Assembly: GCA_043719295.1 (NCBI GenBank)
Contig: JAYSUD010000012.1
Location: 92,790 to 141,022, forward strand
DNA: 48,233 bases
Source of the DNA: a bacterium
Lineage (GTDB): Bacteria; Patescibacteriota; Minisyncoccia; Phycocordibacterales; UBA918
Reading direction: 5' to 3'
A program made the position numbers and the translations under genes. Of the stretch, positions 13,391 to 36,987 are shown in pieces (positions within the stretch are counted from its first letter, which is position 1; the number at the start of each line of letters is the position of its first letter). The notes beneath the pieces were generated by a model. That model did no database searches. It was not told the DNA's origin and saw only the letters and a list, made by a program, of their open reading frames with translations.

Positions 13391-13425
13391 GATACACACA
13401 AAATGACTTAATAATTTTGTCATTT

Positions 13426-16981: not shown

Positions 16982-17004
16982 AGTTTACGTATTTTTTAAA
17001 ATTA

Positions 17005-17442: not shown

Positions 17443-17525
17443 ATACCTACTATAGTAGTATGCTCTACCACCACTTGTCTATTCCCGTACTCACCAATAG
17501 CTTGCCCCCATGATATAATTTTCCT

Positions 17526-17996
17526 ATGGCAGAACAGGTACGTGCAATTTTATGGGAGGCGTATGAACACCAGCATGCTCCAAAAGAGAGTGATTGGTTT
17601 TGGATTTTGGGTATTATGACCCTTTCAATATCCATGGCGTCAATTCTCCTTGGTAATCCCCTTTTTGGTATCTTAACCTTTATTGGAGGACTCGTGGTTG
17701 CGATACTCGCAACCCGTGATCCTAAAATTGTTTCCTATGCAGTTACGCAACGTGGACTACAGATCGAAGATCGAATGTACCCCTACACTACGTTAGAATG
17801 TTTTTGTATAGACGAAGAAGCAGTCTCAGGACCTCAGTTGTTGGTAAAATCAACAAAACTATTCATGCCGTTACTGGTACTTCCCCTTCCGTTAGATACC
17901 ATGGAAGAAATTGAGGACCTTATTGCGCAACGTCTCCCTGAAGAACACATTGAGGAACCCTTCGCCCACAAACTCCTTGAATTTTTCGGCTTTTAA
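17526..17996 (+). CDS. Small membrane protein, unknown function (its 3' end is the target of the adjacent insertion)
   Basis: 156 aa with two TM helices (WFWILGIMTLSISMASILL, GILTFIGGLVVAILA). The C-terminal coding sequence is duplicated at 22112-22161. Confidence 0.7.
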   Translation: MAEQVRAILWEAYEHQHAPKESDWFWILGIMTLSISMASILLGNPLFGILTFIGGLVVAILATRDPKIVSYAVTQRGLQIEDRMYPYTTLECFCIDEEAVSGPQLLVKSTKLFMPLLVLPLPLDTMEEIEDLIAQRLPEEHIEEPFAHKLLEFFGF

Positions 17997-18001
17997 GCTA
18001 T
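17952..18001 (+). repeat. Direct repeat, left copy (attL-like), 50 nt with 2 mismatches to 22112-22161
   Basis: gaGgaacccTtcgcccacaaactccttgaatttttcggcttttaagctat versus gaAgaacccCtcgcccacaaactccttgaatttttcggcttttaagctat. Confidence 0.9.
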
Positions 18002-18006
18002 CAAGT

Positions 18007-18396
18007 ATGGAGAAGGATTTTAATAAGTGGAATACTAAGAAATCTTTAGTTAATAATACCCACAAAACACCTTTCTTTCATGAGCGTGAAATTTGGTTTT
18101 GTTTTCTTGGTGCAAACATCGGATTTGAGCAAGACGGCCGAGGTGACGATTTCCAGAGACCTGTGTTAATACTTAAAAAGTTTAATAATGAAATCTGCTG
18201 GGCAATTCCGCTTTCAAAGACAAGTCGGCGTGGAAAGTATTATTTTGCTTTTCAGTTTAATACCACGACAACAAGTGTTGCAATCCTGTCTCAAATTAAA
18301 CTGATTGATGCCCATCGACTTAGTAGAAAAATTGGAGACATAGATGAAACTAATTTCAAAAGTGTTATAGAAAAACTCAAGGCATTGTTGCCTTGA
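18007..18396 (+). CDS. PemK/MazF-like toxin family protein
   Basis: MEKDFNKWNTKK...REIWFCFLGANIGFEQDG...FQRPVLILKKFNN...AILSQIKLIDAHRL fits the MazF/PemK SH3-like barrel pattern (RPvlIl strand). Start trimmed to ATG 18007. Confidence 0.6.
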   Translation: MEKDFNKWNTKKSLVNNTHKTPFFHEREIWFCFLGANIGFEQDGRGDDFQRPVLILKKFNNEICWAIPLSKTSRRGKYYFAFQFNTTTTSVAILSQIKLIDAHRLSRKIGDIDETNFKSVIEKLKALLP

Positions 18397-18524
18397 GTTT
18401 TTCTTGTTCCTCTGCCTTGCGACAGAGTCGGGCCGAAGCCATTTGTTCATTCAGTATATTCTATCACCACAAAAAGTCAATATTTGAAACATAACTTATA
18501 ATGGAATATCTATAATATAACTAT

Positions 18525-18848
18525 ATGGCATTTTCTTTTTCACATCTGATTATTTATGAGTCAGACCGAATGACCTGTGAGAGCGCTTTTAGGCTAGTTA
18601 ACGAAGACCTTCCACAGGCTACGAAGCGGGGTACAGCTTCTTGTGTTGGAAAAATTGAAAGCTTTGACATATGGCTCGGTTTCAAGAAAGGAATACCTTC
18701 GTGGAAATGTTCCTGTACAAAGACCTTGTATGCAGAATCGAGTAATCCTTGCGTTCATGCAATTGCCTTAGCTATTTCGTGGGACAGAAATCGAGGCGTC
18801 CCTGACCCTTCAGATGAAGACATTGAGTTTCTTACGAAGAAGCATTGA
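18525..18848 (+). CDS. SWIM zinc-finger protein
   Basis: WKCSCTKTLYAESSNPCVHAIAL is a CxC...CxH SWIM signature. Converges on the helicase gene and overlaps it by 17 nt. Confidence 0.7.
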   Translation: MAFSFSHLIIYESDRMTCESAFRLVNEDLPQATKRGTASCVGKIESFDIWLGFKKGIPSWKCSCTKTLYAESSNPCVHAIALAISWDRNRGVPDPSDEDIEFLTKKH

Positions 18849-20961: not shown

Positions 20962-20972
20962 AAACCACTCAA

Positions 20973-22025
20973 TTATATTCTCCTATATCGAGTCGTCCTA
21001 CCTTGTCCAATACGCTCTATCTTTTTGAGTCGAAGCAGTGTGTCTATTGCCTGAGATACAGTTGGACGGGCGACACCAGTTACTTTTGCAATCAGACCTG
21101 GCGTTGCTTCTTCCGTAGTCAACAGATACTGCCACACGAGCAACTGCTTCGGTGAGAGGAGCTTTTCAATACTTTCTTTTGATATGAGCGCAAGCGCTTC
21201 TTTTGCCTGAGTCAATGAAACATATAAAAAAAATTCAAGCCATGGAGATACATCTTCAGACTCTGTGCCGAATGTTTTCTGACTCTTACGAAGTACAACA
21301 TAATACTCTGCCTTGTTATCTTCAATCAATTTTTCGTGTGAAACGTACGGTACATAATCATATCCAAGCTGGAGCATGAGCAAATTTGTAAGTATGCGAC
21401 TCATTCTGCCATTTCCATCTTGGAAGGGGTGAATCTTAAGAAATTCGACAATAAAATTAGCAATTACTATGAGTGTATGGATTTTCTTCTGTGTAATTGC
21501 TTTTTGTGTCCACTCTATTAATTCCTGCATTTCTTTTCCTGTAAGCCATGCTGGCGTTGTGGCAAATACGACTGCAACTGACGCACCTGTATCGTCCAGT
21601 ATTTCTACTTGATTCTCAACTTTTTTATAGCTACCTCGGTGGAGGCTATCTTTGTCTACATACTTGAGAAGCTCTCGGTGAAGATGTTGGATACTACTTT
21701 CAGAAAAAGAAATTTTTGTATACGCAGTAAATACATTTTCAAGAAGTTCGTAGTACCCCTGCACCTCCTGTTTATCTCTATCTTTAAACTTTTGCATGGA
21801 GAGTCCACGCATCAGTTTTTCAACATCTTCATCAGTCAGTTTCGCTCCCTCAATACGAGTAGACGCACCCGTAGAGGTGACAAGGACTGATTTCTTCAGT
21901 CGTCCTAATATCTGTGGATTAAGTAATGCTCCTCCTACAAATCGACCCTTGAGTTCATCGATCTGACTCACAAGTACCCAAAGATTTTGTGGTATATTTT
22001 TAACTCGTTTATCGAAGCGATTCAT
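20973..22025 (-). CDS. Fic/DOC family protein with N-terminal inhibitory motif and C-terminal winged HTH
   Basis: Active site HPFQDGNGRMSR. STRIEG matches the (S/T)xxxE(G/N) auto-inhibition helix. C-terminal ...ATPGLIAKVTGVARPTVSQAIDTLLRLKKIER is wHTH-like. Confidence 0.85.
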   Translation of the reverse strand: MNRFDKRVKNIPQNLWVLVSQIDELKGRFVGGALLNPQILGRLKKSVLVTSTGASTRIEGAKLTDEDVEKLMRGLSMQKFKDRDKQEVQGYYELLENVFTAYTKISFSESSIQHLHRELLKYVDKDSLHRGSYKKVENQVEILDDTGASVAVVFATTPAWLTGKEMQELIEWTQKAITQKKIHTLIVIANFIVEFLKIHPFQDGNGRMSRILTNLLMLQLGYDYVPYVSHEKLIEDNKAEYYVVLRKSQKTFGTESEDVSPWLEFFLYVSLTQAKEALALISKESIEKLLSPKQLLVWQYLLTTEEATPGLIAKVTGVARPTVSQAIDTLLRLKKIERIGQGRTTRYRRI

Positions 22026-22209: not shown

Positions 22210-22281
22210 GCTCTCATAGTTTAATGGATAGAATGTCAGTTTGCGGAATTGACGATCCAGGTTCGATCCCTGGTGAGAGCA
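22210..22281 (+). tRNA. tRNA-Arg (anticodon GCG by hand folding), no encoded CCA
   Basis: Acceptor GCTCTCA/TGAGAGC, D loop AATGGATA, anticodon stem TCAGT/ATTGA with loop TTGCGGA, T arm CCAGG-TTCGATC-CCTGG. The isotype rests on my choice of anticodon-stem register. Confidence 0.7.
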
Positions 22282-22287
22282 CAAAAA

Positions 22288-22604: not shown

Positions 22605-23096
22605 CTATTGCAATTCTACTAGCTCTCCATTTGTATCTGACATATGAATATACAATGGTTGTGAACATAAAATCTCAATAACTCCAGTTTCTTGGTTTTG
22701 AGCTGTGACTTGCAATACATGTTTCCCTGGTCGTGATGTTGCGACACCTCTTGGAAAATTAAAAGTTGCATAATATCTATTCATTTCTTTTGGAATGACT
22801 ACATCCAGTTTCATATCTTCCATCACTATGTTGCCTTCTGGATCAATAAAATTGATGGCACAATTGAGGCTTACTTCATATCTAGTATCAGTCATAAATG
22901 GTGATCTATCGAAGATTAAAACCAGATCAAGTGGGGCCTTAATCCAACGCAACGTAGTACCAATACTTTCACTCTCTTCTGGAGAAATAGTTACGCCAAG
23001 GGTCGAAATAATATTTATAAATGAAAGGAAGCCCGTCTCCTTTTCCACTTGAGTTTTTTGACAAATTAACCCACAACAAGATATTTTCTGATTCAT
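22605..23096 (-). CDS. Hypothetical protein (163 aa)
   Basis: ORF lying 3 nt downstream of the adenylating-enzyme gene. No motif recognised. Confidence 0.6.
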   Translation of the reverse strand: MNQKISCCGLICQKTQVEKETGFLSFINIISTLGVTISPEESESIGTTLRWIKAPLDLVLIFDRSPFMTDTRYEVSLNCAINFIDPEGNIVMEDMKLDVVIPKEMNRYYATFNFPRGVATSRPGKHVLQVTAQNQETGVIEILCSQPLYIHMSDTNGELVELQ

Positions 23097-23099: not shown

Positions 23100-24404
23100 T
23101 TAACTAGTTACTGCAGTTTGATTAGACTCATCAATATATACTAGCGTTTTACCTCTTCCCATTCTCGGTATTGACTCAAGAAACACCATATGGATGTTAA
23201 TTGTATTGCCTAAAATTTTCTTCATACACGACAACAAATCCTCAGTCATAAAATCAAAATATAAATTATTTTTCACTATTCGAACCTCTAGTTCGTGTTC
23301 ACTCTTCTTTACTATCTGGTATTGCACAATAGCTTCAGCATGTTCTGCAAAAAGACTATTGAGATCAAAGTGGCTTAACATTTTTTCTCCGAACATTACA
23401 AAACGATTCCTGCCGTGTAGCGAAAATCTAATATATGGACCTCTTTTTTCGTGTAGAATTGCAAGGTCTCCAAGTTCATATCGAATAAACGGTTGGGTAT
23501 AGTTAAGTAAATCTGTCACAAGCACTCTTCCTGTCTGTCCTACCTGTACACTTTTATTTTCATCATCTACAATCTCAATTATAAACGTCTCTGCACACGA
23601 GACAAGTCCTTGGCTTCCTGGTTCTTCAGCTCCAATTGTTGCAAACTCAGCTGTACCATAGCGATTATAGACTTTGCCTCCTAGGACACGTTCAATATAC
23701 TGCACTTGACCATCAAGTAATGCCTCACCACTATTAATAATATATGGGATTTTAATTTTTCCAGTATATCCATACTGTTCAACATAGTGACAAAATTCTA
23801 GAGTTGAAGTTGCATAACATCCAAAAATATGAGGTTCCAATTTTATTACTTTTTCAACAATTTCTTTAGATTCTGAACGCAAATTCGCGTAGTCAATAAA
23901 TAAATGTCTGCCTTCCGCATCTTCAATCCTGGTCGGTTCAAGAATGTCGGGTCTGCGGATTTCAGCTATTCGCAGTTTGTTTTGAATCTCTGACACTGAA
24001 TGACCTGCTTTTATAATCGAGCGAAATATATGAAAATACATGTACGATAACTGCAAATCAGGAAATTCAGTATCATACGCAGAATTATAAAAACGAACAG
24101 GCTCGCCTGTTGTGCCTGAAGTACCACCTTTACTTCGTCCGTACATCCATTTTGGTAAATGGTGATTTACCATGTCAAACCCATCTTCTCTAAGATTTTG
24201 CCGAGTTACAATAGGGAGTTTTTCAAAAGAAGATAATTCAAGAGACTCACCTTCAAAGACTTTTTTATAGTAGGAAGTATTAGCTCGTGCATAGTGCAAA
24301 AGTTTTTGAAGCTTTCTTTTTTGCAAGAAAAACAAAAGGGTATCTGGAAAATAAATACTTCTTGTTATCCAAAAAAAATCTAATTCGTCTTTAAGAAAAA
24401 GCAT
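23100..24404 (-). CDS. PaaK/CapK/F390-synthetase-like adenylate-forming enzyme
   Basis: GGTSGTTGEPVRF (the TSGTTGxP AMP-binding loop of phenylacetate-CoA-ligase-like enzymes) and a C-terminal RMGRGK lysine motif. Confidence 0.75.
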   Translation of the reverse strand: MLFLKDELDFFWITRSIYFPDTLLFFLQKRKLQKLLHYARANTSYYKKVFEGESLELSSFEKLPIVTRQNLREDGFDMVNHHLPKWMYGRSKGGTSGTTGEPVRFYNSAYDTEFPDLQLSYMYFHIFRSIIKAGHSVSEIQNKLRIAEIRRPDILEPTRIEDAEGRHLFIDYANLRSESKEIVEKVIKLEPHIFGCYATSTLEFCHYVEQYGYTGKIKIPYIINSGEALLDGQVQYIERVLGGKVYNRYGTAEFATIGAEEPGSQGLVSCAETFIIEIVDDENKSVQVGQTGRVLVTDLLNYTQPFIRYELGDLAILHEKRGPYIRFSLHGRNRFVMFGEKMLSHFDLNSLFAEHAEAIVQYQIVKKSEHELEVRIVKNNLYFDFMTEDLLSCMKKILGNTINIHMVFLESIPRMGRGKTLVYIDESNQTAVTS

Positions 24405-26301: not shown

Positions 26302-27984
26302 TTATTGTGCTTTATTGTGTACCACTACTCCGTTTACGAGATAGTTTGCAGGGCCTTGCTTCATATGTAGGTTGTATACATCAACATATTCTTGTTCATA
26401 TGAGTTTGTGCCATCTATAACAACTTCTGAACTAACAATACTTCCAAGACCATCGTGCAATAGTACAGAGTCACCAATAGCAAACAAACCAATTTCTTTG
26501 TATGACTTTGAAACTGGATCAAAGTATGGGTGATTACTTGTCACAAACGTTTCTACACTATGTTGCTGCCCATCAATAATAGAAACTTTTAGGAGTGGGT
26601 AATCTCCGAAATTAGCAGGATTATGAAGTTGCGAATGGACAATTAATTCACCAACAACCGATGTTACAAAGCTATTTGTATTTTGATCATAAGATACAAC
26701 GGTATCCCCTTCTTTAATACTTGCAATGGCAACCTCACCATTTAAAGTTGTAACTAATTGATCTGCAGTGAAGCATGAGTAACTACTTTGTGAATATGAC
26801 CTATAGCTACTTTGTGAATAAGTAGATCTATAGCTACTTTGGCTATAGTAACCACCTTGGCTATAGTAACCACCTTGAGAATAGTAACCACCTTGGCTAT
26901 AATACCCACCTTGAGAATAGTAACTACTTTGTGAATAGTACCTACTTTGACTATATCCTTTGCCAGCATAACTACTTTGAGTATAGTACCCACCTTGACC
27001 ATAGTAACTACTTTGGCTATACGATTTACCCCCATAACTACTTTGAGAGTATGTAGTTCTGTAACTACTTTGGCTGTAGTAACTACTTTGGCTGTAGTAA
27101 CTACTTTGGCTGTATGCTTTACCTCCATAGCTACTTTGCGAGTATGTTCTGTAGCTACTTTGGCTATATGTAGGGGTTGAAGGAACTCCATACGCATCCT
27201 TAACAGATTGTGGAAGATCTTGAACATTATTGAATGGATGTGTAGTACCATTAGAATCTGTATACGTTCCAGTACCTGAGGTATGAACAACAATATTTCC
27301 TCCATTATTACACTCATACACTACTATTCCAGATGGGAGCGTTAGACCAGATGAGGTATAACTACTTTGGGTATATCCAGGGGTATAACTACTTTGGGTA
27401 TATCCAGGGGCATAAGAACTTTGACTGTATCCTGGTGCGTAGCTTGATTGAGAGTAGGCTGGACCATAACTTGACTGAACGTATCCAGGTCCAGTGTAAG
27501 AACTTTGACTATATCCTGGGACATAACTACTTTGAGAGTATCCTGGTGCGTAACTACTCTGACTGTACCCTGGAGCGTAGCTTGATTGAGAGTAGGCTGG
27601 GCCACCGTAAGAACTCTGACTGTAAGCAGGTCCATAGCTTGATTGAGAATATGGCGCAGGAACGTCAGCATATACAGTCTTAATAAATACAACCTGACCT
27701 ATCATTGAACGTAAGTCGAAATTATTAATTTTGGAGTACACATGAATTCCTGCTAATGCAAAAACCAAAATTGTCGCAACAACAGGCAATGACTTATTCT
27801 TTAGAAAAAAACTACTTCTGGAGCTTTCCACATTAAACAATGGGGACAATATTTCAGCATTAGTTGTAATTTCTGAACTAATTACATCAAACGACTTCAA
27901 TTCATTTTCATTATTATAAATGAATGTAGTGTCGTGTTTTTTTACACTCGAACTGTTCGCACTTAAGATAGCGTCTTTTCCCAT
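26302..27984 (-). CDS. Membrane-anchored Tyr/Ser/Gln/Gly-repeat protein ending in a C-terminal Hint (bacterial intein-like) domain
   Basis: TM helix at about aa 66-84. About 11 copies of Y(S/T/V)QSSY plus xPG (aa 112-212), a 60-aa non-repeat insert, then about 20 more YSQSSY/YSQGGY units (aa 273-403). The Hint domain follows: Cys404 (CFTADQLV), block B TSNHP, and VYNLHM..GPANYLVNGVVVHN-KAQ-stop. Confidence 0.85.
   Translation of the reverse strand: MGKDAILSANSSSVKKHDTTFIYNNENELKSFDVISSEITTNAEILSPLFNVESSRSSFFLKNKSLPVVATILVFALAGIHVYSKINNFDLRSMIGQVVFIKTVYADVPAPYSQSSYGPAYSQSSYGGPAYSQSSYAPGYSQSSYAPGYSQSSYVPGYSQSSYTGPGYVQSSYGPAYSQSSYAPGYSQSSYAPGYTQSSYTPGYTQSSYTSSGLTLPSGIVVYECNNGGNIVVHTSGTGTYTDSNGTTHPFNNVQDLPQSVKDAYGVPSTPTYSQSSYRTYSQSSYGGKAYSQSSYYSQSSYYSQSSYRTTYSQSSYGGKSYSQSSYYGQGGYYTQSSYAGKGYSQSRYYSQSSYYSQGGYYSQGGYYSQGGYYSQGGYYSQSSYRSTYSQSSYRSYSQSSYSCFTADQLVTTLNGEVAIASIKEGDTVVSYDQNTNSFVTSVVGELIVHSQLHNPANFGDYPLLKVSIIDGQQHSVETFVTSNHPYFDPVSKSYKEIGLFAIGDSVLLHDGLGSIVSSEVVIDGTNSYEQEYVDVYNLHMKQGPANYLVNGVVVHNKAQ
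26776..27651 (-). repeat. In-frame degenerate tandem coding repeats (18-30 nt units) encoding YSQSSY-type units, split by a unique segment at 27169-27348
   Basis: Recurrent gtaactactttggctgtagtaactactttg... on the plus strand. It produces long shadow ORFs in several frames. Confidence 0.85.
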
Positions 27985-28280
27985 ATAGTACTATTAGTAT
28001 AATACACATTTATTAAAAATAATGTGCCCCTGTGCACAAATATCTCTACCATCTAGCCCATTTTACTTTTTAATAAAGTTTTAAAAGATCAAATCTTGAA
28101 GTGTGCTAAATTTTTCTTAACATTCCTAAAATAATTACTCCAGTGCAGTTGAATTAAAGCCTGTTTGAAAGCTCTCAAACAAAAAAACTTTCAAATAACA
28201 AAATAATATAGCCATCCATTTACTTACTAATGCTTTAACATACTGTCTTTTGAATACCGGAATTAGCCATAAATGCACAT

Positions 28281-29462
28281 TCACTTAAAATATATCCCCT
28301 TCTTGTTCAACATTTCTTCAAAAGACGGACTGAAACTTACTACTTCTTCTAGCGCATTGAATATTAAAGGACTTTGTTCCCGAGCTTTGTCCTGATTGAA
28401 TTGAAATCTAAATATAGTCTGAGAAAGAGCGTCGTATGGCAAGTTTTGATTTAAATGCTCTAGAGCCAAATTTATATGACTTTCTACAATAGTTTCGTAT
28501 ACTTCCTTGTTTATTCGATGTAGGTAGAGTGCACTATAGAAATGAATGGAGCTTTCATAGTTGGCAAATACATTATTTTCTTTATAACTTTCAGATTGAG
28601 AAATTTGCATTGCTTCGGCAAAAACAGTTTCGAAGTCTTGCTCAGTTGGTTTTGGCACTTTGGTTACAATATCTCCAAGCACCTTGCCCTTCCAGTATAA
28701 ATGTGTGACAAGCGCACTAGATTTAAGAGATATCGGGGTATTTATAGGATCTTTTATTCTTTCATCGGCGCTGGCTATGTATGTCTCAATTTTATTCTGA
28801 ATTTGAACATTAGAAAGTTGTTCTACGTTTGGTCTATATTTGTTTTCATTCAGTGTATCAGCATATACATTTGCTAAAAACATACTCGTGAATGGAATTG
28901 GTTCAAGACTTTCGGCAAATAGTGCCAACTTTTTCATCAGCTCATGCCGAGCAATTAAGTCACCATTTTTTGCAAGTTCTAATGTCTCTAAATATTTTTT
29001 ATCAAACGATATTATTGCTTGTGTCTGAATATAAAAAGGGAAATCTCCAGCATAAAATGAGGCAGGGTCAGTGTACGCATATCTAATAAGCATTGCTATG
29101 GCTGATGACCTACCCCAAGCTGGCACACTCTCATCATCAGCTACACCTCGCAACATATTTATGGCTTCTAAAGATGCTTCAGTAGTGTTTTTTTTATGCA
29201 ATGCACTTATATATGAAAAAGTAAGTGACAGATATTCAAGAGATTTTTTATTATTCATATTGTTTATAAGACTCTTTGCATTTTGTAAATCAGTATCTGC
29301 AGCGCTTGTAAGCAACACACTAGCTAGTTCAGGCCCATTTTTTGACTCTCTATTTATTTGTATCTCATTATTGCCATCATTTCTGGGGTAGAAAAAAAAT
29401 ATACACAGTGTAATACCCAGTGTCAGAAAAAAAAGAAGTAGTGGTAGTATTTTAATTTTCAT
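28281..29462 (-). CDS. Membrane-anchored all-alpha protein, unknown function; translationally coupled to the upstream Hint-repeat gene
   Basis: N-terminal TM helix (ILPLLLFFLTLGITLCIFFF). TAATG stop/start overlap at 29460-29464. Confidence 0.7.
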   Translation of the reverse strand: MKIKILPLLLFFLTLGITLCIFFFYPRNDGNNEIQINRESKNGPELASVLLTSAADTDLQNAKSLINNMNNKKSLEYLSLTFSYISALHKKNTTEASLEAINMLRGVADDESVPAWGRSSAIAMLIRYAYTDPASFYAGDFPFYIQTQAIISFDKKYLETLELAKNGDLIARHELMKKLALFAESLEPIPFTSMFLANVYADTLNENKYRPNVEQLSNVQIQNKIETYIASADERIKDPINTPISLKSSALVTHLYWKGKVLGDIVTKVPKPTEQDFETVFAEAMQISQSESYKENNVFANYESSIHFYSALYLHRINKEVYETIVESHINLALEHLNQNLPYDALSQTIFRFQFNQDKAREQSPLIFNALEEVVSFSPSFEEMLNKKGIYFK

Positions 29463-30304
29463 TACATTCCAAATTTATTATGTACAAGGATCCCGTTAAC
29501 AAAATAGTTAGCAGGGCCACTAGACATGTGTAAATTATATACTGTTGCTATTACTGAGGATTCAGTCAATACATCTCTACTTATAATCTTAATAGGTCCA
29601 GATTGTGTAAAAAGGCTATCGCCTATATTAAACTCCCCAATCGCCTTGTATGCACCCGAGACTACGTCATAGTAAGGATGGTTACTTGTAACACGCGTTA
29701 TACTCCCATCAGAGCACGTTAGTTCTACTAGCGGCATATTCACAAAATCATGAGGGTTTGTTTGTTCATCATGAATAATAACTTCACCAACGGTAGATGT
29801 TACAAATTCTTCTGACTCTTCATCATATGACCGAACCTTAGCCCCTACACATACACGCTCAATAGAAACACCCCCATCTTCAGTCAGGACTACCTCCCCC
29901 GCAGTAAAGCAGGAACCTCCACAACTACCCCCGGAGCCCCCTGAACTTGCATAACTGCTTTGGCTGTAGTACCCACTTTGAGAATATGACCTGTAACTGC
30001 TTTGGCTGTAGTACCCACTTTGAGAATATGACCTGTAGCTGCTTTGAGAATATGAACCATAGCTACTTTGGCTGTAGTACCCACTTTGAGAATATGAACC
30101 ATAGCTACTTTGTAGATATGGGGTATCAGCATGTGCTACTTGAAAGTTTGAAATGTTCTTTATAAAGCCCAATATCTGAAGTTTTGGATATTGCTCTTTA
30201 TTAAAAAGATCTAAGCCAAAAAATTTACAAGTAAAAACTACGATCGTCAACAAAAGGAAGAGCGCTATTTTAATTGGATTTAAAAAAGTATTCTTATGCG
30301 ACAT
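29462..30304 (-). CDS. Membrane-anchored YSQSSY/YSQSGY-repeat protein with Gly/Ser/Cys tract and C-terminal Hint domain (short paralogue of 26302-27984)
   Basis: TM helix at aa 11-31, repeats at aa 63-119, SSGGSGGSCGGS, then Hint Cys132 (CFTAGEVV), TSNHP, and VYNLHMSSGPANYFVNGILVHN-KFGM-stop. Confidence 0.85.
   Translation of the reverse strand: MSHKNTFLNPIKIALFLLLTIVVFTCKFFGLDLFNKEQYPKLQILGFIKNISNFQVAHADTPYLQSSYGSYSQSGYYSQSSYGSYSQSSYRSYSQSGYYSQSSYRSYSQSGYYSQSSYASSGGSGGSCGGSCFTAGEVVLTEDGGVSIERVCVGAKVRSYDEESEEFVTSTVGEVIIHDEQTNPHDFVNMPLVELTCSDGSITRVTSNHPYYDVVSGAYKAIGEFNIGDSLFTQSGPIKIISRDVLTESSVIATVYNLHMSSGPANYFVNGILVHNKFGM
29948..30118 (-). repeat. In-frame tandem coding repeats (YSQSSY / YSQSGY units)
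   Basis: Same nucleotide motif family as 26776-27651. Confidence 0.8.
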
Positions 30305-30401
30305 AATATATCAATATATTCTACAGTAAGTAGAACCTTAGTAAAGGCTATTGTTAACATTTGCTAAACTATACCTGACACAAACTGTGTATACTTCTTT
30401 A

Positions 30402-31829
30402 ATGGATGCAGAAGAGAATTCATATGTATTTGGAAAAGTAGTCGATCTTTACACATACATTTCTAAATCAAATCTCGGGGAGATTACAAAAGCAGGTGTA
30501 CTTTTCATTGTTAACATCCTAAATACGTACCTTCTGTTGCGTACCCAATTTGTAATTCAATATACAGAGGACTTTCGAGATGGTATAGACGTTGATTTAA
30601 AAGAAAAAATCAGGTTTCTTAAAGAAAAAAGAATTATTGATCAACTCATAATTCATTCCCATATATTTTCTGATGAACCATTTCAATTTAGTGCCACGGC
30701 AGTACCTAGTGGATATGGACATGACTTTTTTGATCAGCAAAAAACAATAAGAAAATCTTTGAGTGAAGCTGTTGAGCGCTACCTATGGGAAAATACAACA
30801 GCTCCGTATAAAAATAGACAAATATTTTCTTCTTATAATGAATTAAAGTATAAAAAACTAGATATTTTTTCACTACAAGGATTTACACAAGATCAAAAAA
30901 AAAGCACCATAAAGCTCCAATTTACTTCTGAAACTATTTTTTCATGGTTGCCTGGATTTTCTCTGACTGGTAATAAAACACTCTATTGCCCAACAAGTTT
31001 AGTTAGCTTAAATTATTTTAGATCAAGTGACGAACCAATGCTTCGTTGGAACATTACAACAGGTCAGGCAACCAGACCAAGCCTTGCTGAAGCGAAACTT
31101 CAAGCAATTCTTGAAATTATTGAGCGAGATGCTTTTATGATAAGTTATCTTAATAAACTAACCCCAAAAAAAATATCAATCTCACATTATTCTGATCTAG
31201 ATAAAGATATCGCTAGTATTTACGATGACTGCATGCGATATAATCTCGAGCTTCATTTATTGGCTCTACCTACTGATTTTCCTGTACACTGTATAATTGC
31301 TGTCATAATTGACAGATCGGGACTAGGACCAGCTCTCACTGTCGGTGCTTCGTGTAGTTTCGATATAGAAAATTGTATAAAACATGCTACATCTGAAGCT
31401 CTCTCTGTACGTTTTTACCTCAAAGATAAATTCCAAAAAGAACATTGCGGAAAAAATTTTGACAGACTTGAGCGATTAATCTACTGGAGTAAACCTGAAA
31501 ATATTGATAAACTTAATTTTTTTCTGGAAGGTACTGATACGATACAAGTTCCATTACTTGAATCTAAATTCAATATAGAAGAAAAGCTATGCATACTTAT
31601 ATCTGCATTTAGATCAAAAAAATATGAACTATGTTGTATTGATATGTCAGATAAAGAGCTGAAAAATGCTGGTTTTGAAAGTGTTTCAATTATCTCGCCA
31701 GAAATGCAACCTTTGCACCTCAATGAAGAAATTCCATACTTTGGTGGAAAAAGACTTAAAGAAGTGCCACTTATGTTTGGATATGATGCCGCAAGTATAA
31801 TTAATACAATACCTCATCCATTCCCATAA
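30402..31829 (+). CDS. YcaO-domain cyclodehydratase-like protein with about 130-aa N-terminal extension
   Basis: LSEAVERYLW and EAKLQAILEIIERDAF are YcaO ATP/Mg-binding glutamate motifs. The C-terminal IPHPFP-stop is the Pro-rich PxPxP tail of azoline-forming YcaOs. Start is ATG 30402 or TTG 30351. Confidence 0.85.
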   Translation: MDAEENSYVFGKVVDLYTYISKSNLGEITKAGVLFIVNILNTYLLLRTQFVIQYTEDFRDGIDVDLKEKIRFLKEKRIIDQLIIHSHIFSDEPFQFSATAVPSGYGHDFFDQQKTIRKSLSEAVERYLWENTTAPYKNRQIFSSYNELKYKKLDIFSLQGFTQDQKKSTIKLQFTSETIFSWLPGFSLTGNKTLYCPTSLVSLNYFRSSDEPMLRWNITTGQATRPSLAEAKLQAILEIIERDAFMISYLNKLTPKKISISHYSDLDKDIASIYDDCMRYNLELHLLALPTDFPVHCIIAVIIDRSGLGPALTVGASCSFDIENCIKHATSEALSVRFYLKDKFQKEHCGKNFDRLERLIYWSKPENIDKLNFFLEGTDTIQVPLLESKFNIEEKLCILISAFRSKKYELCCIDMSDKELKNAGFESVSIISPEMQPLHLNEEIPYFGGKRLKEVPLMFGYDAASIINTIPHPFP

Positions 31830-31831
31830 AT

Positions 31832-32578
31832 ATGTACAAATATTTTGCAAAAACTTTTCATAAGAAAATATTCAACCAATATCTAGACAGATTGCCAATT
31901 TTAGTGGATTCAAAAGTATGGCCAAAGGAGTGGTCAACGATTGATTATAAAGAATATCCACGCATGAAAAAAATAGAGCTCAAGCGAGCATCTTTTATAT
32001 TTCCACCATTAGACTCAATTCTCAAAATGCGACATACGACCAGAGAATTTCTAACACTACCAATTTCACTAGATAAAATTTCTTCTCTCCTTGAATATAG
32101 TGTTGGGTTAAATGTTACTCGAAATAAGAATTCAAACAATGAACGCCGATATTATCCTTCCGGTGGAGCACTTTATCCTCTTGAGGTTTATGTATACGTT
32201 CAATACTCAAAGGAAATAAGCGCTGGTCTATATCATTACAATGTAAAAAATCACTTGCTGGAAAATTTATTACCAAGTTCAGCAATTACTACTCTAAAAG
32301 AGAGCATCTATCCATGGGCAACAGATGCCCCAGTGACATTTTTTATTTCAAGTATTTGGAATAGAAATTTTAAAAAATATGACGACTACGGGTATCCAAT
32401 CGTACTTCTAGAAGCTGGGCATATTGGGCAAAATATGCAGCTTGTAGGTGAGGCGTTAGGACTGCGCTACTGTACATATGTTGGATTTAATATGAAAAAA
32501 ATTAATAATCTATTTAACTTTGAAAAAGCTGATGAAGAATGTGTACTCTATGTAGCTTCTTTCGGAGAAAGCAAATGA
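31832..32578 (+). CDS. SagB-type (nitroreductase-fold, FMN) dehydrogenase
   Basis: RRYYPSGGALYPLEVYV and LEAGHIGQNMQL are typical of SagB/ThcOx azoline oxidases. Begins 2 nt after the YcaO stop. Confidence 0.8.
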   Translation: MYKYFAKTFHKKIFNQYLDRLPILVDSKVWPKEWSTIDYKEYPRMKKIELKRASFIFPPLDSILKMRHTTREFLTLPISLDKISSLLEYSVGLNVTRNKNSNNERRYYPSGGALYPLEVYVYVQYSKEISAGLYHYNVKNHLLENLLPSSAITTLKESIYPWATDAPVTFFISSIWNRNFKKYDDYGYPIVLLEAGHIGQNMQLVGEALGLRYCTYVGFNMKKINNLFNFEKADEECVLYVASFGESK

Positions 32579-32646
32579 CATTAAGAGTGCAGCATCAGTT
32601 ATAATATATACAGCCCGCCTCCTTAAAGAGACGGGCCGGGTGATAT

Positions 32647-33009
32647 CTACTGCTTCACGAACTTTAGACCAGAATGTTTGTAGTCAAACAGGGTCCAATT
32701 GCCAGTTATTTTAGATGGTGTAATTTTGGTTATCTCGAACGTCGCAACATCAAAACTGATGGTATCTCCCTGCCGACGGACGCTCTGGGCTACATATTGT
32801 TCTCCTCCAGTAGGAGGATTTGTGCTACAATCAGCCCCAGTTCTATACGTCATCACGCCAGTTGGTAAAACAGTTAAGACTCCACACTGGTTGCCTGGAA
32901 AATCTGCAACCCACCAGCCAACCCCCAGCTCAGACTGACCTGCCATTGCTGTAGAAGCAAAAATGGCACAAACAAGAACGAACATGGTACGACGAAGACT
33001 TTTTTCCAT
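32647..33009 (-). CDS. Small secreted protein, unknown function (visibly higher GC than neighbours)
   Basis: Signal peptide MEKSLRRTMFVLVCAIFASTAMAGQ. 120 aa. A GC-rich hairpin lies downstream at 32613-32636. Confidence 0.65.
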   Translation of the reverse strand: MEKSLRRTMFVLVCAIFASTAMAGQSELGVGWWVADFPGNQCGVLTVLPTGVMTYRTGADCSTNPPTGGEQYVAQSVRRQGDTISFDVATFEITKITPSKITGNWTLFDYKHSGLKFVKQ

Positions 33010-33326: not shown

Positions 33327-33725
33327 TTATTCCACAACAGTAACAGTCCCAACCTTATTAGCTCTAATATGGTCATGAAATTTCCAAACGCCTACTTTAT
33401 CAAACTTAAATTTCCAAATGTCTCCAGAAGCAATTGGCTTTAATGGATCAAATTCTGGATAAATGCCATGGGTTGGATGTAGGTCAGATGCTGGCCAATG
33501 GAATTCCCCACTTTCATTTGTCCATAGAACTACGTCACCCTTTTTAACGGTTACTTCTTTTGGTTCATAGCCATTTTCAGTGCGCACAATAGTAACGGTC
33601 GTTTCCTCAAGTATTTCTGTAGCTCCCACAATGCTTTTAATTTCAGTATCTTTTGTTAAGAAAAGGTAGCTACCTCCAACTACCGCTAAGACGATAACTA
33701 CAACAATCAAATTTTTTGTATTCAT
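33327..33725 (-). CDS. Membrane-anchored stand-alone cupredoxin-like domain lacking the type-1 Cu cysteine
   Basis: ...YEPKEVTVKKGDVVLWTNESGEFHWPASDLHPTHGIYPEFDP...WKFKFDKVGVWKFHDHIRANKVGTVTVVE. The strand pattern is cupredoxin-like but has FHDH where CxxH...M is expected. Confidence 0.7.
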   Translation of the reverse strand: MNTKNLIVVVIVLAVVGGSYLFLTKDTEIKSIVGATEILEETTVTIVRTENGYEPKEVTVKKGDVVLWTNESGEFHWPASDLHPTHGIYPEFDPLKPIASGDIWKFKFDKVGVWKFHDHIRANKVGTVTVVE

Positions 33726-33726
33726 A

Positions 33727-34245
33727 TTATTTTTTAACTTTTTTAGGTACTAAGAATCCAATACACAGCCCAATACACAAACTTCCAAAACTAAATAATG
33801 CATATAGTGGAATCGGATTAACTTCTTTTTCAACATCAAGAGGCGCAATTATTTCGAGTGGAAATTCTGATTTTATCACTGTTTCGCCGTCTTTTTGAAA
33901 GCGAGTTGCAATGGTATACACCCCCTCTTCTGGAAACACAAACGTGAAGCCAGTTGCACCAAACACCGGTTTATCAACTGCACCTCCAAAAAAGAGTTTT
34001 TTATCTTTTGTGATGGTGACCCATGCATCAGTAAATACCTCACCTTCAACTTTAGACACATCCTCAGGGTACAATGCAAAATCAAATCGAGTTGATTCTA
34101 ACGCTGCAATAAATTCATCGTGTCCAATATCAATTTTATATCCCTCTTTTACTTCTTCAAACGAGACTCCAGTACCGTGAGCATACACAGAAATTGCACC
34201 AGTTACAAAGATTACTCCAAAAATTAATACTGCCAAATACCTCAT
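33727..34245 (-). CDS. Secreted beta-rich protein with predicted N-terminal His after signal cleavage and C-terminal TM anchor
   Basis: Signal peptide ...GAISVYA followed by HGTGVSFEE. C-terminal LYALFSFGSLCIGLCIGFLV-PKKVKK. Confidence 0.65.
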   Translation of the reverse strand: MRYLAVLIFGVIFVTGAISVYAHGTGVSFEEVKEGYKIDIGHDEFIAALESTRFDFALYPEDVSKVEGEVFTDAWVTITKDKKLFFGGAVDKPVFGATGFTFVFPEEGVYTIATRFQKDGETVIKSEFPLEIIAPLDVEKEVNPIPLYALFSFGSLCIGLCIGFLVPKKVKK

Positions 34246-34270
34246 ATTTTAAAAGTATACCATGTACGTT

Positions 34271-35488
34271 TTATTCTCCATTACATTCTTGTTTAAACTT
34301 TGCAGGAAGTAACGAGCAGAGTTTTTCAAACGGTTCTGAACCAGGATGAAAATTAAACGAGGCTACATTTGCAAGAAAGCTATAACACTCGTCTTGTGCG
34401 GATCCTGTATTTGCCCGAGCACACATTGCAATTCCCTCCTCTACAAGATTTTGATCTTCTTCAGGATATGCATTTGCACCTCGGGAGAAACAGTTACCTT
34501 TATAGGTTTCAGGTAGCCCATTGCAGGTAGTTGCCATCTTCTCTGGATTTTCTAAATTGTGACGTCCATTAATTGTAAACGCTGAAACATAACACAAGTC
34601 TCTACTTTGTGAGGCTGAGAGTACTGAACAGTAAGAAGTAATACCTTCACTTGTGTACACATCAGCACCAAAAAATGGCCATGCTTCTCTCCAACAAGCA
34701 CCATACTGTGCATCATTTTGTGAACTTTTTGTACAGAACTCTTCAAGATTCTCCCGTGAGGGTTTTAGGTGTAACATATCAACGAGTGCATAGTCTTCGG
34801 GTTCAAGTGGTTGAAAGAGTTGCATGTACACCCCTTCTGTACAAAGCTGACGATAATCTCTCCCATCTTCTTTTTTACCAATTACTTCACAAGCCTGTAC
34901 TGATTCGGCTACTTCTGCCAGCGTCATGTGTATGAGCACATGACCAATACCGTGATAACAGATTGCCTTCGTTAAGTCAGTTGGGTCAAAACCCTCACGC
35001 GTTTCACAGGCTATCGATAAATCAGTTAACGCAGAATCAAATTCTTCTTTTGATAAGTCTTCATCGTTAAAACGGGTAACGATCGCTCCGTGTGCGAAAC
35101 CGTTTGAGCAAAGACCATCAGTCGGACCTTTTGCTATCACATCAAGCCACTTATTTGGGTCTAAAGAGACTTCATATCTTCCAAGTTCGTGTGCGAGCAC
35201 ATGGCAATACAAATACTTTGGATCTTCTCTTCTGATTTCACGGACGACATTAAAAATTTCTTCAGTTGGCAACTCTCGTACTAATTTGGGAACCTCTGTC
35301 TCATAACAAGTTGGTTTATACTCACTATCCTTACAAGCTTCAATCATCAAACTAGCAAACTCTTTGATACTTTTCTGTGGAGAAGATTTTGTTGTTTGTA
35401 CATAGACATATGTGCCCACAGTTAAAATCAAAAATACAGCAGCACTTAGAATCAGAATTGTATTTTTTTTCTTCATACGTAATTTCAT
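34271..35488 (-). CDS. Membrane-anchored Cys/His-rich domain protein (paralogue family, no cupredoxin domain)
   Basis: Motifs YCHVLAHELG, LCSNGFAHG and ICYHGIGHV, followed by recurrent xC(Y/F)xxG units. Confidence 0.7.
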   Translation of the reverse strand: MKLRMKKKNTILILSAAVFLILTVGTYVYVQTTKSSPQKSIKEFASLMIEACKDSEYKPTCYETEVPKLVRELPTEEIFNVVREIRREDPKYLYCHVLAHELGRYEVSLDPNKWLDVIAKGPTDGLCSNGFAHGAIVTRFNDEDLSKEEFDSALTDLSIACETREGFDPTDLTKAICYHGIGHVLIHMTLAEVAESVQACEVIGKKEDGRDYRQLCTEGVYMQLFQPLEPEDYALVDMLHLKPSRENLEEFCTKSSQNDAQYGACWREAWPFFGADVYTSEGITSYCSVLSASQSRDLCYVSAFTINGRHNLENPEKMATTCNGLPETYKGNCFSRGANAYPEEDQNLVEEGIAMCARANTGSAQDECYSFLANVASFNFHPGSEPFEKLCSLLPAKFKQECNGE

Positions 35489-35490
35489 TA

Positions 35491-36987
35491 TTATTTTGGA
35501 CAGTACAATTGCCTATACTCTTCTGGAACTTGAGCGCAAATCATTTGTGTGTCTTGTAAGGTATACCTTCCACTCATTCGAGGAAGAGTGTATTTATAAC
35601 AGCTATTTCGTTCTTCTTTAGTTAATATACCATTTGCACAAAAGGTGAGGTTCTCTACATATTCTACTCCAGGTTTACCGTACTTAATGTGTCCACCTGA
35701 AAGCCCTTCAATACAAGCTAATCTATCTTCTCCCTGAGTCCTACAAAATTCAATTCCCTTTTCTTGATACCCTTCTGTTTGTCCATACATACGAATATAT
35801 TCAAACATAATACCTAGTGTAGTGAGCTCATCAACAGTATGTCCATCAATTGCAATGACGTCACCATCAATCATATTTTTATTTACGTATTGTGTAATTT
35901 TATCAAAATCATCATTGTACAGCTTAAAGACAATCGGCATCATGTTTGCGTAACATCCTTCTCGTCTGTGTACCGGTTGTTTGTTACACATAAGAAATGG
36001 ATCTTTTTGTAACTCTTGGATTTGATATTTTGGGTCTGCTGAGAGTATTTCAATAGCATTAAAAACACCTGTGTCACAGAGATACGTTTCAAGCTCATTT
36101 TTTGCCAGCTGTGCGCAAATTTTAAATCCTGGTTCCATCATTGCTTCGACGTCCCCCCACTGTGTTGGGTCACTTCCATCGATAGCACCATGGCCCGTAC
36201 CATGATAACAAGCTGTTGCTGCTTGCGACGCTTGTCCACTTAATTTTTGATCTACAAGTTCACAAAATGCACGAGCTTCAGCAATGTCTCCTGTTGCCAG
36301 CAACATTGTTTCCATAAAACCGTGATAAAAGCCATATCCACAAAGTGCAGTAGCCGGCGTTAACTCAAAATTCTCTTGTGCAACATACTGTGCATACGCT
36401 TTTTCTCCAATAAGGTGAGATTGGCCGTGACAGTCGTTAGCAAACGCTGGCTCTGTCTCCGACAGCTCAACAATTTTATCAAACGACGCTTTTACACCTT
36501 CAACTTTGAGTGTTTCCAGAATAAGTTTTTCCCAACATTGTTGATTTTTTTCAACCGTACAGTCGGTTACGACTTTCGTTCCGTCTTTCTTTAATACCGT
36601 TATTTCACCTTCAAAAGTAGAGTTGATATGATCGTGGAATTTGTAACTTCCAGCTTTAGTAAAGGTAAATGACCATTTTTCATCAGCTGAAAGTGGCTTA
36701 CGCGGATCAAAATCAGGAAAACTTGAATGTGTTGGATGCACGTTTGATGCTGGCCAAAATGCTTCACCTGTTTTTGAACTAAAAGTTACCGTATCACCTT
36801 CATAAATTGTCAAGTTTGGAGGCGTAAAACCATTTTCGGTAAAAACAATAGTTTGTAGGGCAGTATTAAATGAAGTCTGAAATAAAAAAAATCCGTATAC
36901 AACAAAGATGATAAGACCTACGACAGCAATGCCATACGCCTGCGCATACTTGCATAAGTTTTGTACAACAAAATTCATACTATGCAC
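35491..36987 (-). CDS. Membrane-anchored Cys-less cupredoxin-like domain fused to Cys/His-rich domain
   Basis: EAFWPASNVHPTHSSFPDFDP...WSFTFTKAGSYKFHDH, then DCHGQSHLIG, LCGYGFYHG and ACYHGTGHG. Confidence 0.75.
   Translation of the reverse strand: MHSMNFVVQNLCKYAQAYGIAVVGLIIFVVYGFFLFQTSFNTALQTIVFTENGFTPPNLTIYEGDTVTFSSKTGEAFWPASNVHPTHSSFPDFDPRKPLSADEKWSFTFTKAGSYKFHDHINSTFEGEITVLKKDGTKVVTDCTVEKNQQCWEKLILETLKVEGVKASFDKIVELSETEPAFANDCHGQSHLIGEKAYAQYVAQENFELTPATALCGYGFYHGFMETMLLATGDIAEARAFCELVDQKLSGQASQAATACYHGTGHGAIDGSDPTQWGDVEAMMEPGFKICAQLAKNELETYLCDTGVFNAIEILSADPKYQIQELQKDPFLMCNKQPVHRREGCYANMMPIVFKLYNDDFDKITQYVNKNMIDGDVIAIDGHTVDELTTLGIMFEYIRMYGQTEGYQEKGIEFCRTQGEDRLACIEGLSGGHIKYGKPGVEYVENLTFCANGILTKEERNSCYKYTLPRMSGRYTLQDTQMICAQVPEEYRQLYCPK

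Follow-up and report, generated by a model that had tools for sequence, protein, structure and literature searches.

A YcaO-SagB cluster of Patescibacteria with a Hint-tailed candidate precursor

YcaO and SagB enzymes provide a well-studied route to azole peptides, and their usual substrates are short leader-core peptides that are bound via a partner containing a RiPP recognition element (RRE; RiPP, ribosomally synthesised and post-translationally modified peptide). Here we describe a 48-kb stretch of DNA from an uncultured, ultra-small member of the Patescibacteria (the window, to whose numbering and strands all coordinates refer unless another locus is named) in which the genes of a YcaO cyclodehydratase and a SagB-type dehydrogenase lie divergent to the gene of a 280-aa protein that ends in a Hint domain (Table 1). 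Sequence comparisons support this 280-aa protein as the best candidate substrate of YcaO and SagB, and the Gly/Ser/Cys tract ASSGGSGGSCGGS directly before its Hint domain is most likely the site of heterocyclisation.

The enzyme pair and the divergent 280-aa gene

The YcaO protein has both glutamate motifs, AVERY and IIERD, and its C-terminus reads PHPFP; among 29 aligned homologues, H489, P490 and F491 were invariant and P488, E142 and E258 nearly so. Its AlphaFold2 (AF2) model has a mean predicted local distance difference test (pLDDT) score of 89, and the best matches in the Protein Data Bank (PDB) were LynD (4v1v, E 1.6e-23), 7u58, TruD, archaeal YcaOs and McbD; of these, 7u58 is a YcaO that acts as an ATP-dependent peptidase. 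A separate N-terminal domain of ~100 residues (aa 27-125) is confidently folded in the model and has no assignable match. Against TIGR03604 (the SagD family) the protein scored 203 bits, just short of the 219-bit cutoff. The SagB gene starts 2 nt after the YcaO stop codon. Homologous loci were collected by a profile-guided YcaO scan of one genome per GTDB species, which yielded 80 loci, and by a YcaO scan of Joint Genome Institute (JGI) metagenomes, which yielded 80 more; a SagB homologue adjoins YcaO in 71 of the 80 genome loci and lies directly downstream in nearly all. YcaO and SagB are ordinary members of their families, and sequence and model together indicate an intact pair of the azoline/azole type.

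Between the 280-aa gene and YcaO lie 46 bp if YcaO starts at its TTG, and 97 bp if it starts at the first ATG. The 280-aa product consists, in this order, of a hydrophobic helix, the hexapeptide AHADTP (aa 57-62), YSQSSY-type units, the tract with SSGGSGGSCGGS, and the Hint domain; aa 34-127 are predicted to be disordered, with pLDDT below 50. When all six frames of the window were searched for the pattern A[HRKY]AD[ATVSI]P, this protein gave the only match. The repeats of the 280-aa protein and of a 560-aa paralogue are true tandem arrays in the DNA.

A sequence-only reading of this stretch had described the ERY/ERD motifs and PHPFP tail of the YcaO, the SagB gene 2 nt behind it, a divergent gene 46-97 bp away whose membrane-anchored product joins YSQSSY/YSQSGY units to a Hint domain, and a minus-strand 560-aa paralogue with repeats and Hint. 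All of this was borne out by the coordinates, by the AF2 model of the helix and by profile hidden Markov models (HMMs), which matched all three domains (YcaO, SagB and pretoxin-HINT, PT-HINT). The same reading had counted more than 100 Ser residues in the repeat arrays; we find 105 in the repeat regions and 158 over the two proteins (46 in the 280-aa and 112 in the 560-aa protein). It had also seen no small precursor open reading frame (ORF) beside the enzymes, and our searches agree: no ORF in the window matched an HMM built from the leaders of 16 small precursors of related loci, and the ORFs of at least 20 aa in the gaps, a six-frame scan for Cys/Gly/Ser tracts and a motif scan of the window revealed no conventional small precursor. 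Beyond the 280-aa protein, no other window ORF contains a Cys-rich (at least 3 Cys in 20 residues) tract of the Gly/Ser type.

Table 1. Features of the window, with the YcaO-SagB cluster first.
Feature	Position	Strand	Evidence or remark
YcaO cyclodehydratase, 492 aa (475 aa from ATG at 30402)	30351..31829	+	PF02624 E 1.3e-45
SagB-type FMN-dependent dehydrogenase, 248 aa	31832..32578	+	TIGR03605 128.8 bits (cutoff 78.4); Pfam Nitroreductase E 2.7e-20
280-aa Hint protein	29462..30304	-	divergent to YcaO; PT-HINT 36.8 bits (cutoff 27.7)
Leader-like region, aa 1-62 of 280-aa protein	30119..30304	-	helix aa 9-27 (AF2), linker, VAHADTP aa 56-62
Ser/Tyr repeats, aa 63-118 of 280-aa protein	29951..30118	-	8 units Y[SL]QS[SG]Y
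Gly/Ser/Cys tract ASSGGSGGSCGGS, aa 119-131 of 280-aa protein	29912..29950	-	directly before Hint Cys1
BIL-type Hint domain, aa 132-280 of 280-aa protein	29465..29911	-	Cys1 (residue 132), T-x-x-H block, C-terminal His-Asn then KFGM
F7-family membrane-anchored helical (TPR-like) protein, 393 aa	28281..29462	-	F7 profile E 6.9e-20
560-aa paralogue	26302..27984	-	helix, VYADVP, 29 Ser/Tyr units, short non-repeat insert, Hint
Hint domain of 560-aa paralogue, from Cys404	26305..26775	-	PT-HINT 27.8 bits (cutoff 27.7)
PD40/TolB-like beta-propeller, 405 aa	25075..26292	-	Pfam PD40; downstream partner of 560-aa type
PaaK/F390-synthetase-like adenylate-forming enzyme (F10)	23100..24404	-	NCBIfam matches; F10 profile E 1.5e-72
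163-aa protein of unknown function	22605..23096	-	homologues directly beside SagB in L169, L170 (blastp E 1e-17 to 1e-24)
Type I restriction-modification, R	2573-5782		
Type I restriction-modification, S	5788-7089		
Type I restriction-modification, M	7092-9173		
Serine recombinase	9462-10784		
LOOT RNA (Rfam RF03000)	10926-11058	+	70.4 bits (gathering 46.4); just downstream of serine recombinase
N4/N6 DNA methylase	12107-13432		
DUF6119 protein	14695-16488		
MazF/PemK-like toxin	17911-18396		
TOTE-system AEP-helicase protein	18832-20961		
Fic protein	20973-22025		
tRNA-Arg	22210-22282		right edge of island, adjoining cluster

The Hint domain

The two Hint domains of the window end in LVHNKFGM and VVHNKAQ, each followed by the stop codon, so that 3-4 residues stand behind the His-Asn and position +1 is Lys. 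Alignment A4 joins the two window proteins to eight relatives from the database; in it, Cys1 (C131/F132 in the alignment numbering, which omits the initial Met), T205, H208 and the His of the His-Asn pair at the end do not vary, and the Asn is nearly invariant. The model of the 280-aa Hint domain has pLDDT above 90. Foldseek placed the Tetrahymena BUBL BIL2 domain (6y75) and the Clostridium thermocellum bacterial intein-like (BIL) domain (2lwy) first (E ~2e-11, TM-scores 0.83-0.88), and mini-inteins and the Hedgehog autoprocessing domain (1at0) matched with lower scores.

A-type BIL domains cleave themselves but do not splice canonically (PMC7765530), and Tetrahymena BIL2 is reported to hand its N-terminal flank to a Lys amine without ATP (PMC8616854). 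The C-terminal His-Asn without a +1 nucleophile in the window fits the description of the A-type (PMC7765530). An intein would be followed by a C-extein opening with Cys, Ser or Thr, and none is present behind the Hint domain; the architecture of PT-HINT toxins is not seen either, as the 280-aa protein ends 4 residues past the Hint domain and has no toxin domain. The conserved residues and the model make the domain look catalytically competent, and a terminal Hint domain of this kind can only cleave off or hand over its N-terminal part.

A candidate precursor family beside YcaO in related Patescibacteria

Clustering of all ORFs around the YcaO loci gave the neighbour families F4, F7, F9, F10 and F12. 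Neighbours of family F7, F12 or F4, or at least 35% YcaO identity, define a set of 17 species-level loci (L001-L010, L016, L021, L023, L025, L026, L029 and L042), and in each of them a precursor slot beside YcaO is filled by a protein that combines a helix and an xHAD motif with a core rich in Cys, Gly and Ser. The slot gene is usually divergent to YcaO and immediately upstream of F7 or F12. Its product opens with a short basic stretch and a hydrophobic helix, and a linker of 20-30 residues leads on to the motif xHAD(A/T/V)P, ~52-66 residues into the protein; the low-complexity core behind it abounds in Cys, Gly, Ser and Asp (for example AHADAPDCGDCGCGAPDCASDCASDC...). In two loci the Cys-rich cores beside YcaO and SagB are repetitive (DCASDCASDCAPDC in L026, SCGSSCGSSCDSSC in L023). 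The leader HMM matched 17 of the first 80 loci, including L002, which lies outside its training set, as well as 11 metagenome loci; another four metagenome loci with such a protein were recognised by eye. Searched against Pfam and NCBIfam, the small precursors gave nothing above any family cutoff, and their sole match to a curated model was a sub-threshold one to the Cys-Xaa-Xaa-Xaa radical SAM target family.

The patescibacterial loci nearest to the window share F7, F12 (membrane-anchored, tetratricopeptide repeat (TPR)-like), F4 (TPR/Cys-rich), F9 (PRTase-PQQ propeller) and F10 (PaaK-like), and more distant YcaO loci have an M16 peptidase behind SagB instead. Gene order is kept across more than 30 diverged loci while the Cys/Gly/Ser cores beside the enzymes are hypervariable, and hypervariable cores beside conserved enzymes are a hallmark of precursor-enzyme pairs. 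Most family precursors have no Ser/Tyr repeats but always a Cys/Gly/Ser-rich core, and most have no Hint domain, yet YcaO-SagB is retained.

The arrangement in the window, with F7 and the 280-aa Hint protein divergent to YcaO-SagB, is the core arrangement of this family. The AHADTP of the 280-aa protein recurs unchanged in L001 and L009, and its distance from the start is that seen in the small precursors. The window thus probably holds one of the azole-forming YcaO + SagB clusters of a family specific to Patescibacteria, and the 280-aa protein would be an elaborated precursor with repeats inserted after the motif, a short tract as core and a BIL-type Hint domain fused behind. The 280-aa gene had been called unlike any short leader-core precursor. 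Short precursors of conventional look do exist in this enzyme family, though outside the window, and the Hint protein is probably an elaborated member of their family.

Some members of the family have other unusual forms. The proteins at L001 8716-9507 and P0128 (L087 1151-2266) carry the leader motif and core (AHADTPPPPPPPGCGGGSGGGCS, or AQADVP with Ser/Tyr repeats) and share a non-Hint C-terminal domain of ~180 residues where Hint would sit; L001 has a second paralogue at 7798-8697. At L081 1275-1623 (minus strand), the small precursor beside YcaO is apparently frameshifted, with the leader ...NVIPFAQADTPHTDDD and the Cys/Gly-rich core in different frames, which may be a low-complexity assembly error or a pseudogene.

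Closest relatives and Hint-tailed candidate precursors elsewhere

When the window Hint proteins were first compared with the 80 loci by tblastn, L032 was the only match, and taken by itself this would have spoken against co-occurrence. A Hint HMM built from four sequences and applied to the ORFs of every locus, together with look-ups of the closest relatives, changed this picture. The three most similar YcaO proteins, picked by full-length alignment (42-47% identity), were traced to their contigs, L168, L169 (47%) and L170 (42%). The organisms are related to that of the window, and the cupredoxin-set neighbours in L168 and L170 are 58-67% identical to those of the window.

In L169, F7 (386 aa) is preceded by a 330-aa protein, divergent to YcaO-SagB, with a helix, KKVYADVPYSQSSYY..., many Ser/Tyr units, STGGSSGGSS and a Hint domain running from Cys to ...VVHNKLISTAV. 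In L170, the gene before F7 (398 aa) encodes 296 aa, with KRAYADLPYSQSSY..., Ser/Tyr units and ETSCAGCSGCS ahead of a Hint domain that starts at Cys. Both slot proteins thus follow the order helix-[VA]YAD[VL]P-repeats-tract-Hint, and the residue before Hint Cys1 is Ser in all Hint copies of the window's clade. The L168 contig ends 536 bp upstream of YcaO, within a divergent Ser/Tyr-repeat gene; the leader of this gene (...VVFVAKFFGINIL...KKAHADVPYTQSSY) resembles that of the window (...VVFTCKFFGLDLF...VAHADTPYLQSSY) in VVF..KFFG and AHAD.PY.QSSY, and it scores 14.5 bits on the small-precursor leader HMM. The sequence-only reading had proposed a neighbourhood comparison, and YcaO-SagB pairs do neighbour Hint-repeat genes: L169 and L170 are complete, and L168 has the repeat gene at the same divergent position. 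The association between YcaO-SagB and Hint-repeat genes holds in every judgeable case of the window's clade.

The Hint HMM further revealed Hint proteins beside YcaO in five other lineages. In L007, ALADHSGGGDGGGGGSDGCGG...GGSC leads into the Hint domain of a protein divergent to YcaO, with F12 next; in L032, YAQSGGCGGSSSSKADV precedes Hint in a protein downstream of SagB; in L081, P0122 (10001-11200) has DCGDGGCAGCADCGDCGC and then two Hint domains; in the population L117/L119/L120/L123/L124, a Gly/Cys tract whose length depends on the sample is followed by Hint, F7 and F4; and in L162 (5870-6904), the start of a gene for two Hint domains overlaps the stop codon of SagB. Hint-terminated proteins therefore adjoin YcaO-SagB in about eight independent lineages. 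A Gly/Ser/Cys tract stands directly before Hint Cys1 in all YcaO-slot Hint proteins (L169, L170, L007, L032, P0122/L081 and the L117 group) and is missing from Hint proteins found without YcaO. The P0122 leader (NVIPYAYAE...) is common to the small Cys-rich precursors beside the L081 YcaO-SagB (NVIPFAHADTP...).

A link between the two precursor forms is seen in L138, whose 127-aa precursor is positive with the leader HMM and carries AHAD, AHADIPPYDQASYYSQSAYYSQTSY... and then GCGSCGGGCDSCSGG, that is, Ser/Tyr repeats and a Cys tract without a Hint domain; L096 is analogous, with Gly/Tyr repeats. The order of motif, Tyr-rich repeats and Cys/Gly/Ser tract, with or without Hint, is a recurring design.

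L117 5740-6465, L119 7432-8238 and L123 7088-7912 represent one population from different metagenomes, and their leader and Hint differ at few residues; the tract varies in length (16 to ~50 residues) and sequence, which marks the core as hypervariable. Tandem double Hint domains occur in L162, P0122 and P0125 (L084 9682-11043). Each Hint of L162 and P0122 has a Gly- or Cys-rich tract of its own in front, and this suggests that more than one short peptide is released.

The 560-aa paralogue and a module without YcaO

The 560-aa paralogue has no Gly/Ser/Cys tract and is followed by a PD40 propeller. PD40 homologues also stand behind repeat or Hint genes in L007, L083, L169 and L170, and each of the 560-aa relatives P0123, the second Hint gene of L169 and P0124 is followed by such a propeller. 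The P0123 contig is syntenic with the window in its cupredoxin-type genes (487, 402, 173 and 132 aa), a large repeat-Hint gene and a 404-aa protein, and YcaO, SagB, the small Hint gene and F7 are all missing together. P0123 reads ...YRQSSYS immediately before the Hint Cys, P0125 is likewise without a tract, and P0126, P0127 and P0129 have ordinary signal peptides, with an Ala-Asp end in P0126 and P0127.

These comparisons separate two modules: module A comprises YcaO, SagB, the tract precursor and F7, and in module B a propeller is paired with a Ser/Tyr protein that may or may not end in Hint. Module B is a related module of surface proteins to which the 560-aa paralogue probably belongs, and this paralogue cannot be shown to be a substrate of YcaO. 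It had been put forward as a co-substrate; its lack of a tract, its pairing with a PD40 propeller and the persistence of its relatives where the YcaO module is absent speak against this. On the loci compared, the feature that tracks YcaO is the Gly/Ser/Cys tract before Hint Cys1, not the Ser/Tyr repeats.

The latter point bears on an alternative that follows the sequence-only reading, namely that YcaO and SagB mainly modify the Ser residues of the YSQSSY repeats in the 280-aa and 560-aa proteins to give a poly-oxazole polymer, with Hint as a follower or recognition module. Repeats do lie between leader motif and Hint in all three complete precursors of the clade (the window, L169 and L170) and recur in the bona fide small precursor of L138, and the pre-Hint tract of L169 has Ser but no Cys. 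However, the P0123 contig, P0125/L084 and P0126/L085 have repeat-Hint proteins without a tract, and YcaO is absent from the contig or from the surrounding 10 kb, so that the repeats fail as a YcaO-linked feature; most family precursors dispense with the repeats and never with the Cys/Gly/Ser-rich core; and the 560-aa type pairs with the propeller instead. Moreover, Ser flanked by bulky Tyr or Gln does not offer the Gly-flanked context favoured in substrates of the microcin B17 type, which also counts against the repeats. We consider this alternative unlikely, and the tract replaces the repeat region as the probable main target.

Two further observations concern module B. At L170 2548-3015 (minus strand), a 155-aa protein consists of a helix, AQADVP, Ser/Tyr repeats, an acidic spacer and a Cys-rich, non-Gly C-terminus, without Hint; it takes the place of the 560-aa protein before the PD40 propeller, which shows that module B exists without Hint too. 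In the window, 33327-36987 and 40824-42308 (minus strand) hold cupredoxin-like and unknown genes of 132, 172, 405, 498 and 494 aa, and this set is syntenic with Ser/Tyr-repeat/Hint genes in L084, L085, L168, L170 and the P0123 contig, with or without YcaO. A link of the copper proteins to the Tyr-rich repeats, for example through oxidative cross-linking, is conceivable.

F7 and neighbouring genes

The 393-aa F7 gene starts on the last base of the 280-aa stop codon (TAATG, a 1-nt overlap), and the two genes are translationally coupled. A word-index homologue search with the 393-aa ORF returned the self match alone, and the profile that detected it was built from other loci with the window gene left out. 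F7 stands behind the precursor gene in L016, L021, L023, L025, L029, L088, L137, L138, L117/L123, L081, L169 and L170. When the F7 and F12 profiles were compared with PDB sequences, TPR repeats were the sole matches; a C39-like peptidase motif suspected by eye in F12 was dropped, as no search backed it.

Whether the F10 enzyme belongs to the window's cluster is uncertain; F10 genes adjoin YcaO-SagB in L003, L021, L025 and L026, and adjoin a Hint gene in L084. Directly past SagB, on the other strand, lies a gene for a 120-aa protein with a signal-peptide-like start (32647-33009, minus), and a strong terminator-like hairpin at 32611-32638 separates the two. By eye the 120-aa protein is like small proteins beside YcaO in L002, L027 and L008, a likeness that no search detected. 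Promoter and terminator scans gave counts at the level of shuffled sequence and were uninformative. Further left, 2573-22025 is an island of defence and mobile-element genes, whose right edge adjoins the cluster (Table 1).

Discussion

We favour, with moderate confidence, the reading that the 280-aa protein is the cognate precursor of YcaO and SagB, that its tract is heterocyclised as in microcin B17, and that its BIL domain removes itself via a thioester. In the proposed sequence of events, the ATP-dependent YcaO and the FMN-dependent SagB would turn Cys128, and probably the Gly-flanked Ser residues of SSGGSGGSCGGS, into thiazole and oxazole. The Hint domain would then perform an N-to-S acyl shift at Ser131-Cys132, and the resulting thioester would be resolved by hydrolysis or by an acceptor nucleophile. 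The 149-residue Hint domain would thereby be removed, and the modified C-terminus freed or ligated. The N-terminal helix may target the product to the membrane or anchor it there, and cleavage after AHA in AHA-D would release it. AHA-D resembles an Ala-X-Ala peptidase site, yet it lies 25-30 residues beyond the helix, and cleavage at this position is a guess. Capture of the thioester by an acceptor is plausible by analogy with BUBL. We infer the identity of the substrate, the residues modified, the compartment and the fate of the thioester from these comparisons. In a more elaborate version, which we regard as possible but doubtful, the azoles would be formed in the tract of a membrane-tethered, disordered Ser/Tyr polymer, and the BIL thioester would ligate this polymer to a surface or host acceptor or cyclise it.

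Several observations weigh against the 280-aa protein as a tract-modified precursor. The leader HMM gives it 3.6 bits, from a local match to AHADTP alone, so its link to the family rests on architecture, on the motif and on a transitive step via L168. The basic N-terminus of many family leaders predicts, by the positive-inside rule, that core and Hint face outward, away from the cytoplasmic enzymes, and the enzymes themselves have no export signal. Pfam scans of 37 window proteins, every neighbour included, and NCBIfam scans of the 9 nearest revealed no E1-like, Ocin-ThiF-like or TfuA partner and no recognisable RRE. The pair had been described as a complete azole-forming set, and it is so in the domains and motifs of YcaO and SagB, but not in such a partner. 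The L169 tract holds no Cys beyond Hint Cys1, which would leave Ser, or else Cys1, as the target in that locus. Finally, there are the repeat-Hint proteins that lack both tract and a nearby YcaO. The missing RRE-type partner, the predicted outward orientation of the core and the L169 tract keep our confidence at a moderate level and leave room for three rival explanations, of which the modification of repeat Ser has been discussed above.

The predicted topology and the missing partner speak for a second rival, in which there is no substrate relation at all. The helix-AHAD proteins would be exported, with AHA-D as a signal-peptidase-like site, a low-complexity stalk and a self-cleaving Hint end, and YcaO and SagB would have their target elsewhere. 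The typical Ala-Asp signal peptides of the related P0126 and P0127 would agree with this, as would the existence of Hint, F4, F10 and propeller modules without YcaO. Conversely, conserved gene order in more than 30 diverged loci with hypervariable cores beside the enzymes is characteristic of precursor-enzyme pairs; the genes of YcaO, SagB, the small Hint protein and F7 are gained or missing together; in L162 the Hint gene and the SagB stop codon overlap; and the window offers no alternative precursor. We regard the lack of any substrate relation as improbable.

A third rival places YcaO at the Hint junction. The enzyme would activate the Ser131-Cys132 amide, leading to ATP-dependent cleavage or a thioester, or would install a thiazole cap that switches self-cleavage off, and the enzyme pair would regulate or replace the Hint chemistry rather than decorate a core. 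Activation of this amide shares a hydroxythiazolidine intermediate with the N-to-S acyl shift, the second-best structural match of YcaO is the peptidase 7u58, the only Cys near the L169 tract is Cys1, and residue -1 is uniformly Ser in the clade. These points are outweighed by the family precursors that mostly lack Hint yet keep YcaO-SagB, by the conserved SagB, which argues for stable azoles, and by the fully conserved catalytic residues of Hint, which suggest autonomous activity. We consider action at the junction very unlikely and return to the tract of the 280-aa protein as the favoured target.

The closest known systems are the clusters of linear azol(in)e-containing peptides and thiazole/oxazole-modified microcins (TOMMs), above all microcin B17 (McbA with McbBCD). 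The window resembles them in its YcaO and SagB/McbC-type dehydrogenase, in a YcaO fold that matches McbD, LynD and TruD, and in a Gly/Ser/Cys-rich candidate core beside the enzymes. It differs in that no E1-like (McbB/SagC) or Ocin-ThiF-like partner was detected and the YcaO, which falls short of the TIGR03604 cutoff, has its own N-terminal domain; in a leader with a membrane-type helix and xHAD; and in a core placed between Ser/Tyr repeats and a 149-residue Hint domain. Precursors of the heterocycloanthracin/sonorensin type have cores of repeated Cys-Xaa-Xaa, to which the repetitive Cys-rich cores of L026 and L023 are alike, whereas their leaders are of another type and that family is not known to have a membrane helix or Hint.

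The Hint domain itself is nearest to A-type BIL domains and BUBL BIL2, as seen in the best fold matches, Cys1, the T..H block, His-Asn and the lack of a nucleophile after Asn. Like those domains it sits in variable, non-conserved proteins, and amine transfer by BIL2 provides a precedent for ligation. Unlike them, it stands at the extreme C-terminus, behind a putative RiPP core beside YcaO/SagB, and has no known acceptor. Both window proteins pass the gathering score of pretoxin-HINT (PF07591), but no toxin domain follows Hint. Hedgehog/Hog proteins also have a C-terminal Hint that cleaves or transfers the N-terminal part via a thioester, and the fold matches 1at0, but the window Hint lacks a sterol-recognition region, occurs in a bacterial host and is nearer to BIL in fold.

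Taken together, the family departs from known systems in having no recognisable partner, a leader of helix and xHAD and, in several lineages, a presumably self-cleaving intein-like domain behind the core. The architecture of the Hint-tailed candidate precursor appears unprecedented in azole biosynthesis: no curated model or paper was found for it or for the precursor family as a whole, and literature searches for YcaO in Patescibacteria or the candidate phyla radiation (CPR), or for links of YcaO, cyclodehydratase or RiPP with Hint or intein-like domains, returned no relevant paper. The combination of YcaO-SagB, a helix-xHAD protein and F7 or F12 can serve as a genome-mining rule, and we found no curated family model or paper that covers it.

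If the precursor assignment is true, the notion of a RiPP precursor would be widened to proteins of 280 residues with a folded autoprocessing domain. The Hint domain would be a natural thioester-generating follower and could serve the engineering of C-terminally activated azole peptides. Patescibacteria have very small genomes, and their means of host interaction are largely unknown; the cluster would give them a modified surface or secreted product. If the reading of a C-terminal thioester is also true, RiPP heterocyclisation and intein-like, ATP-independent ligation would be joined in episymbiotic Patescibacteria.

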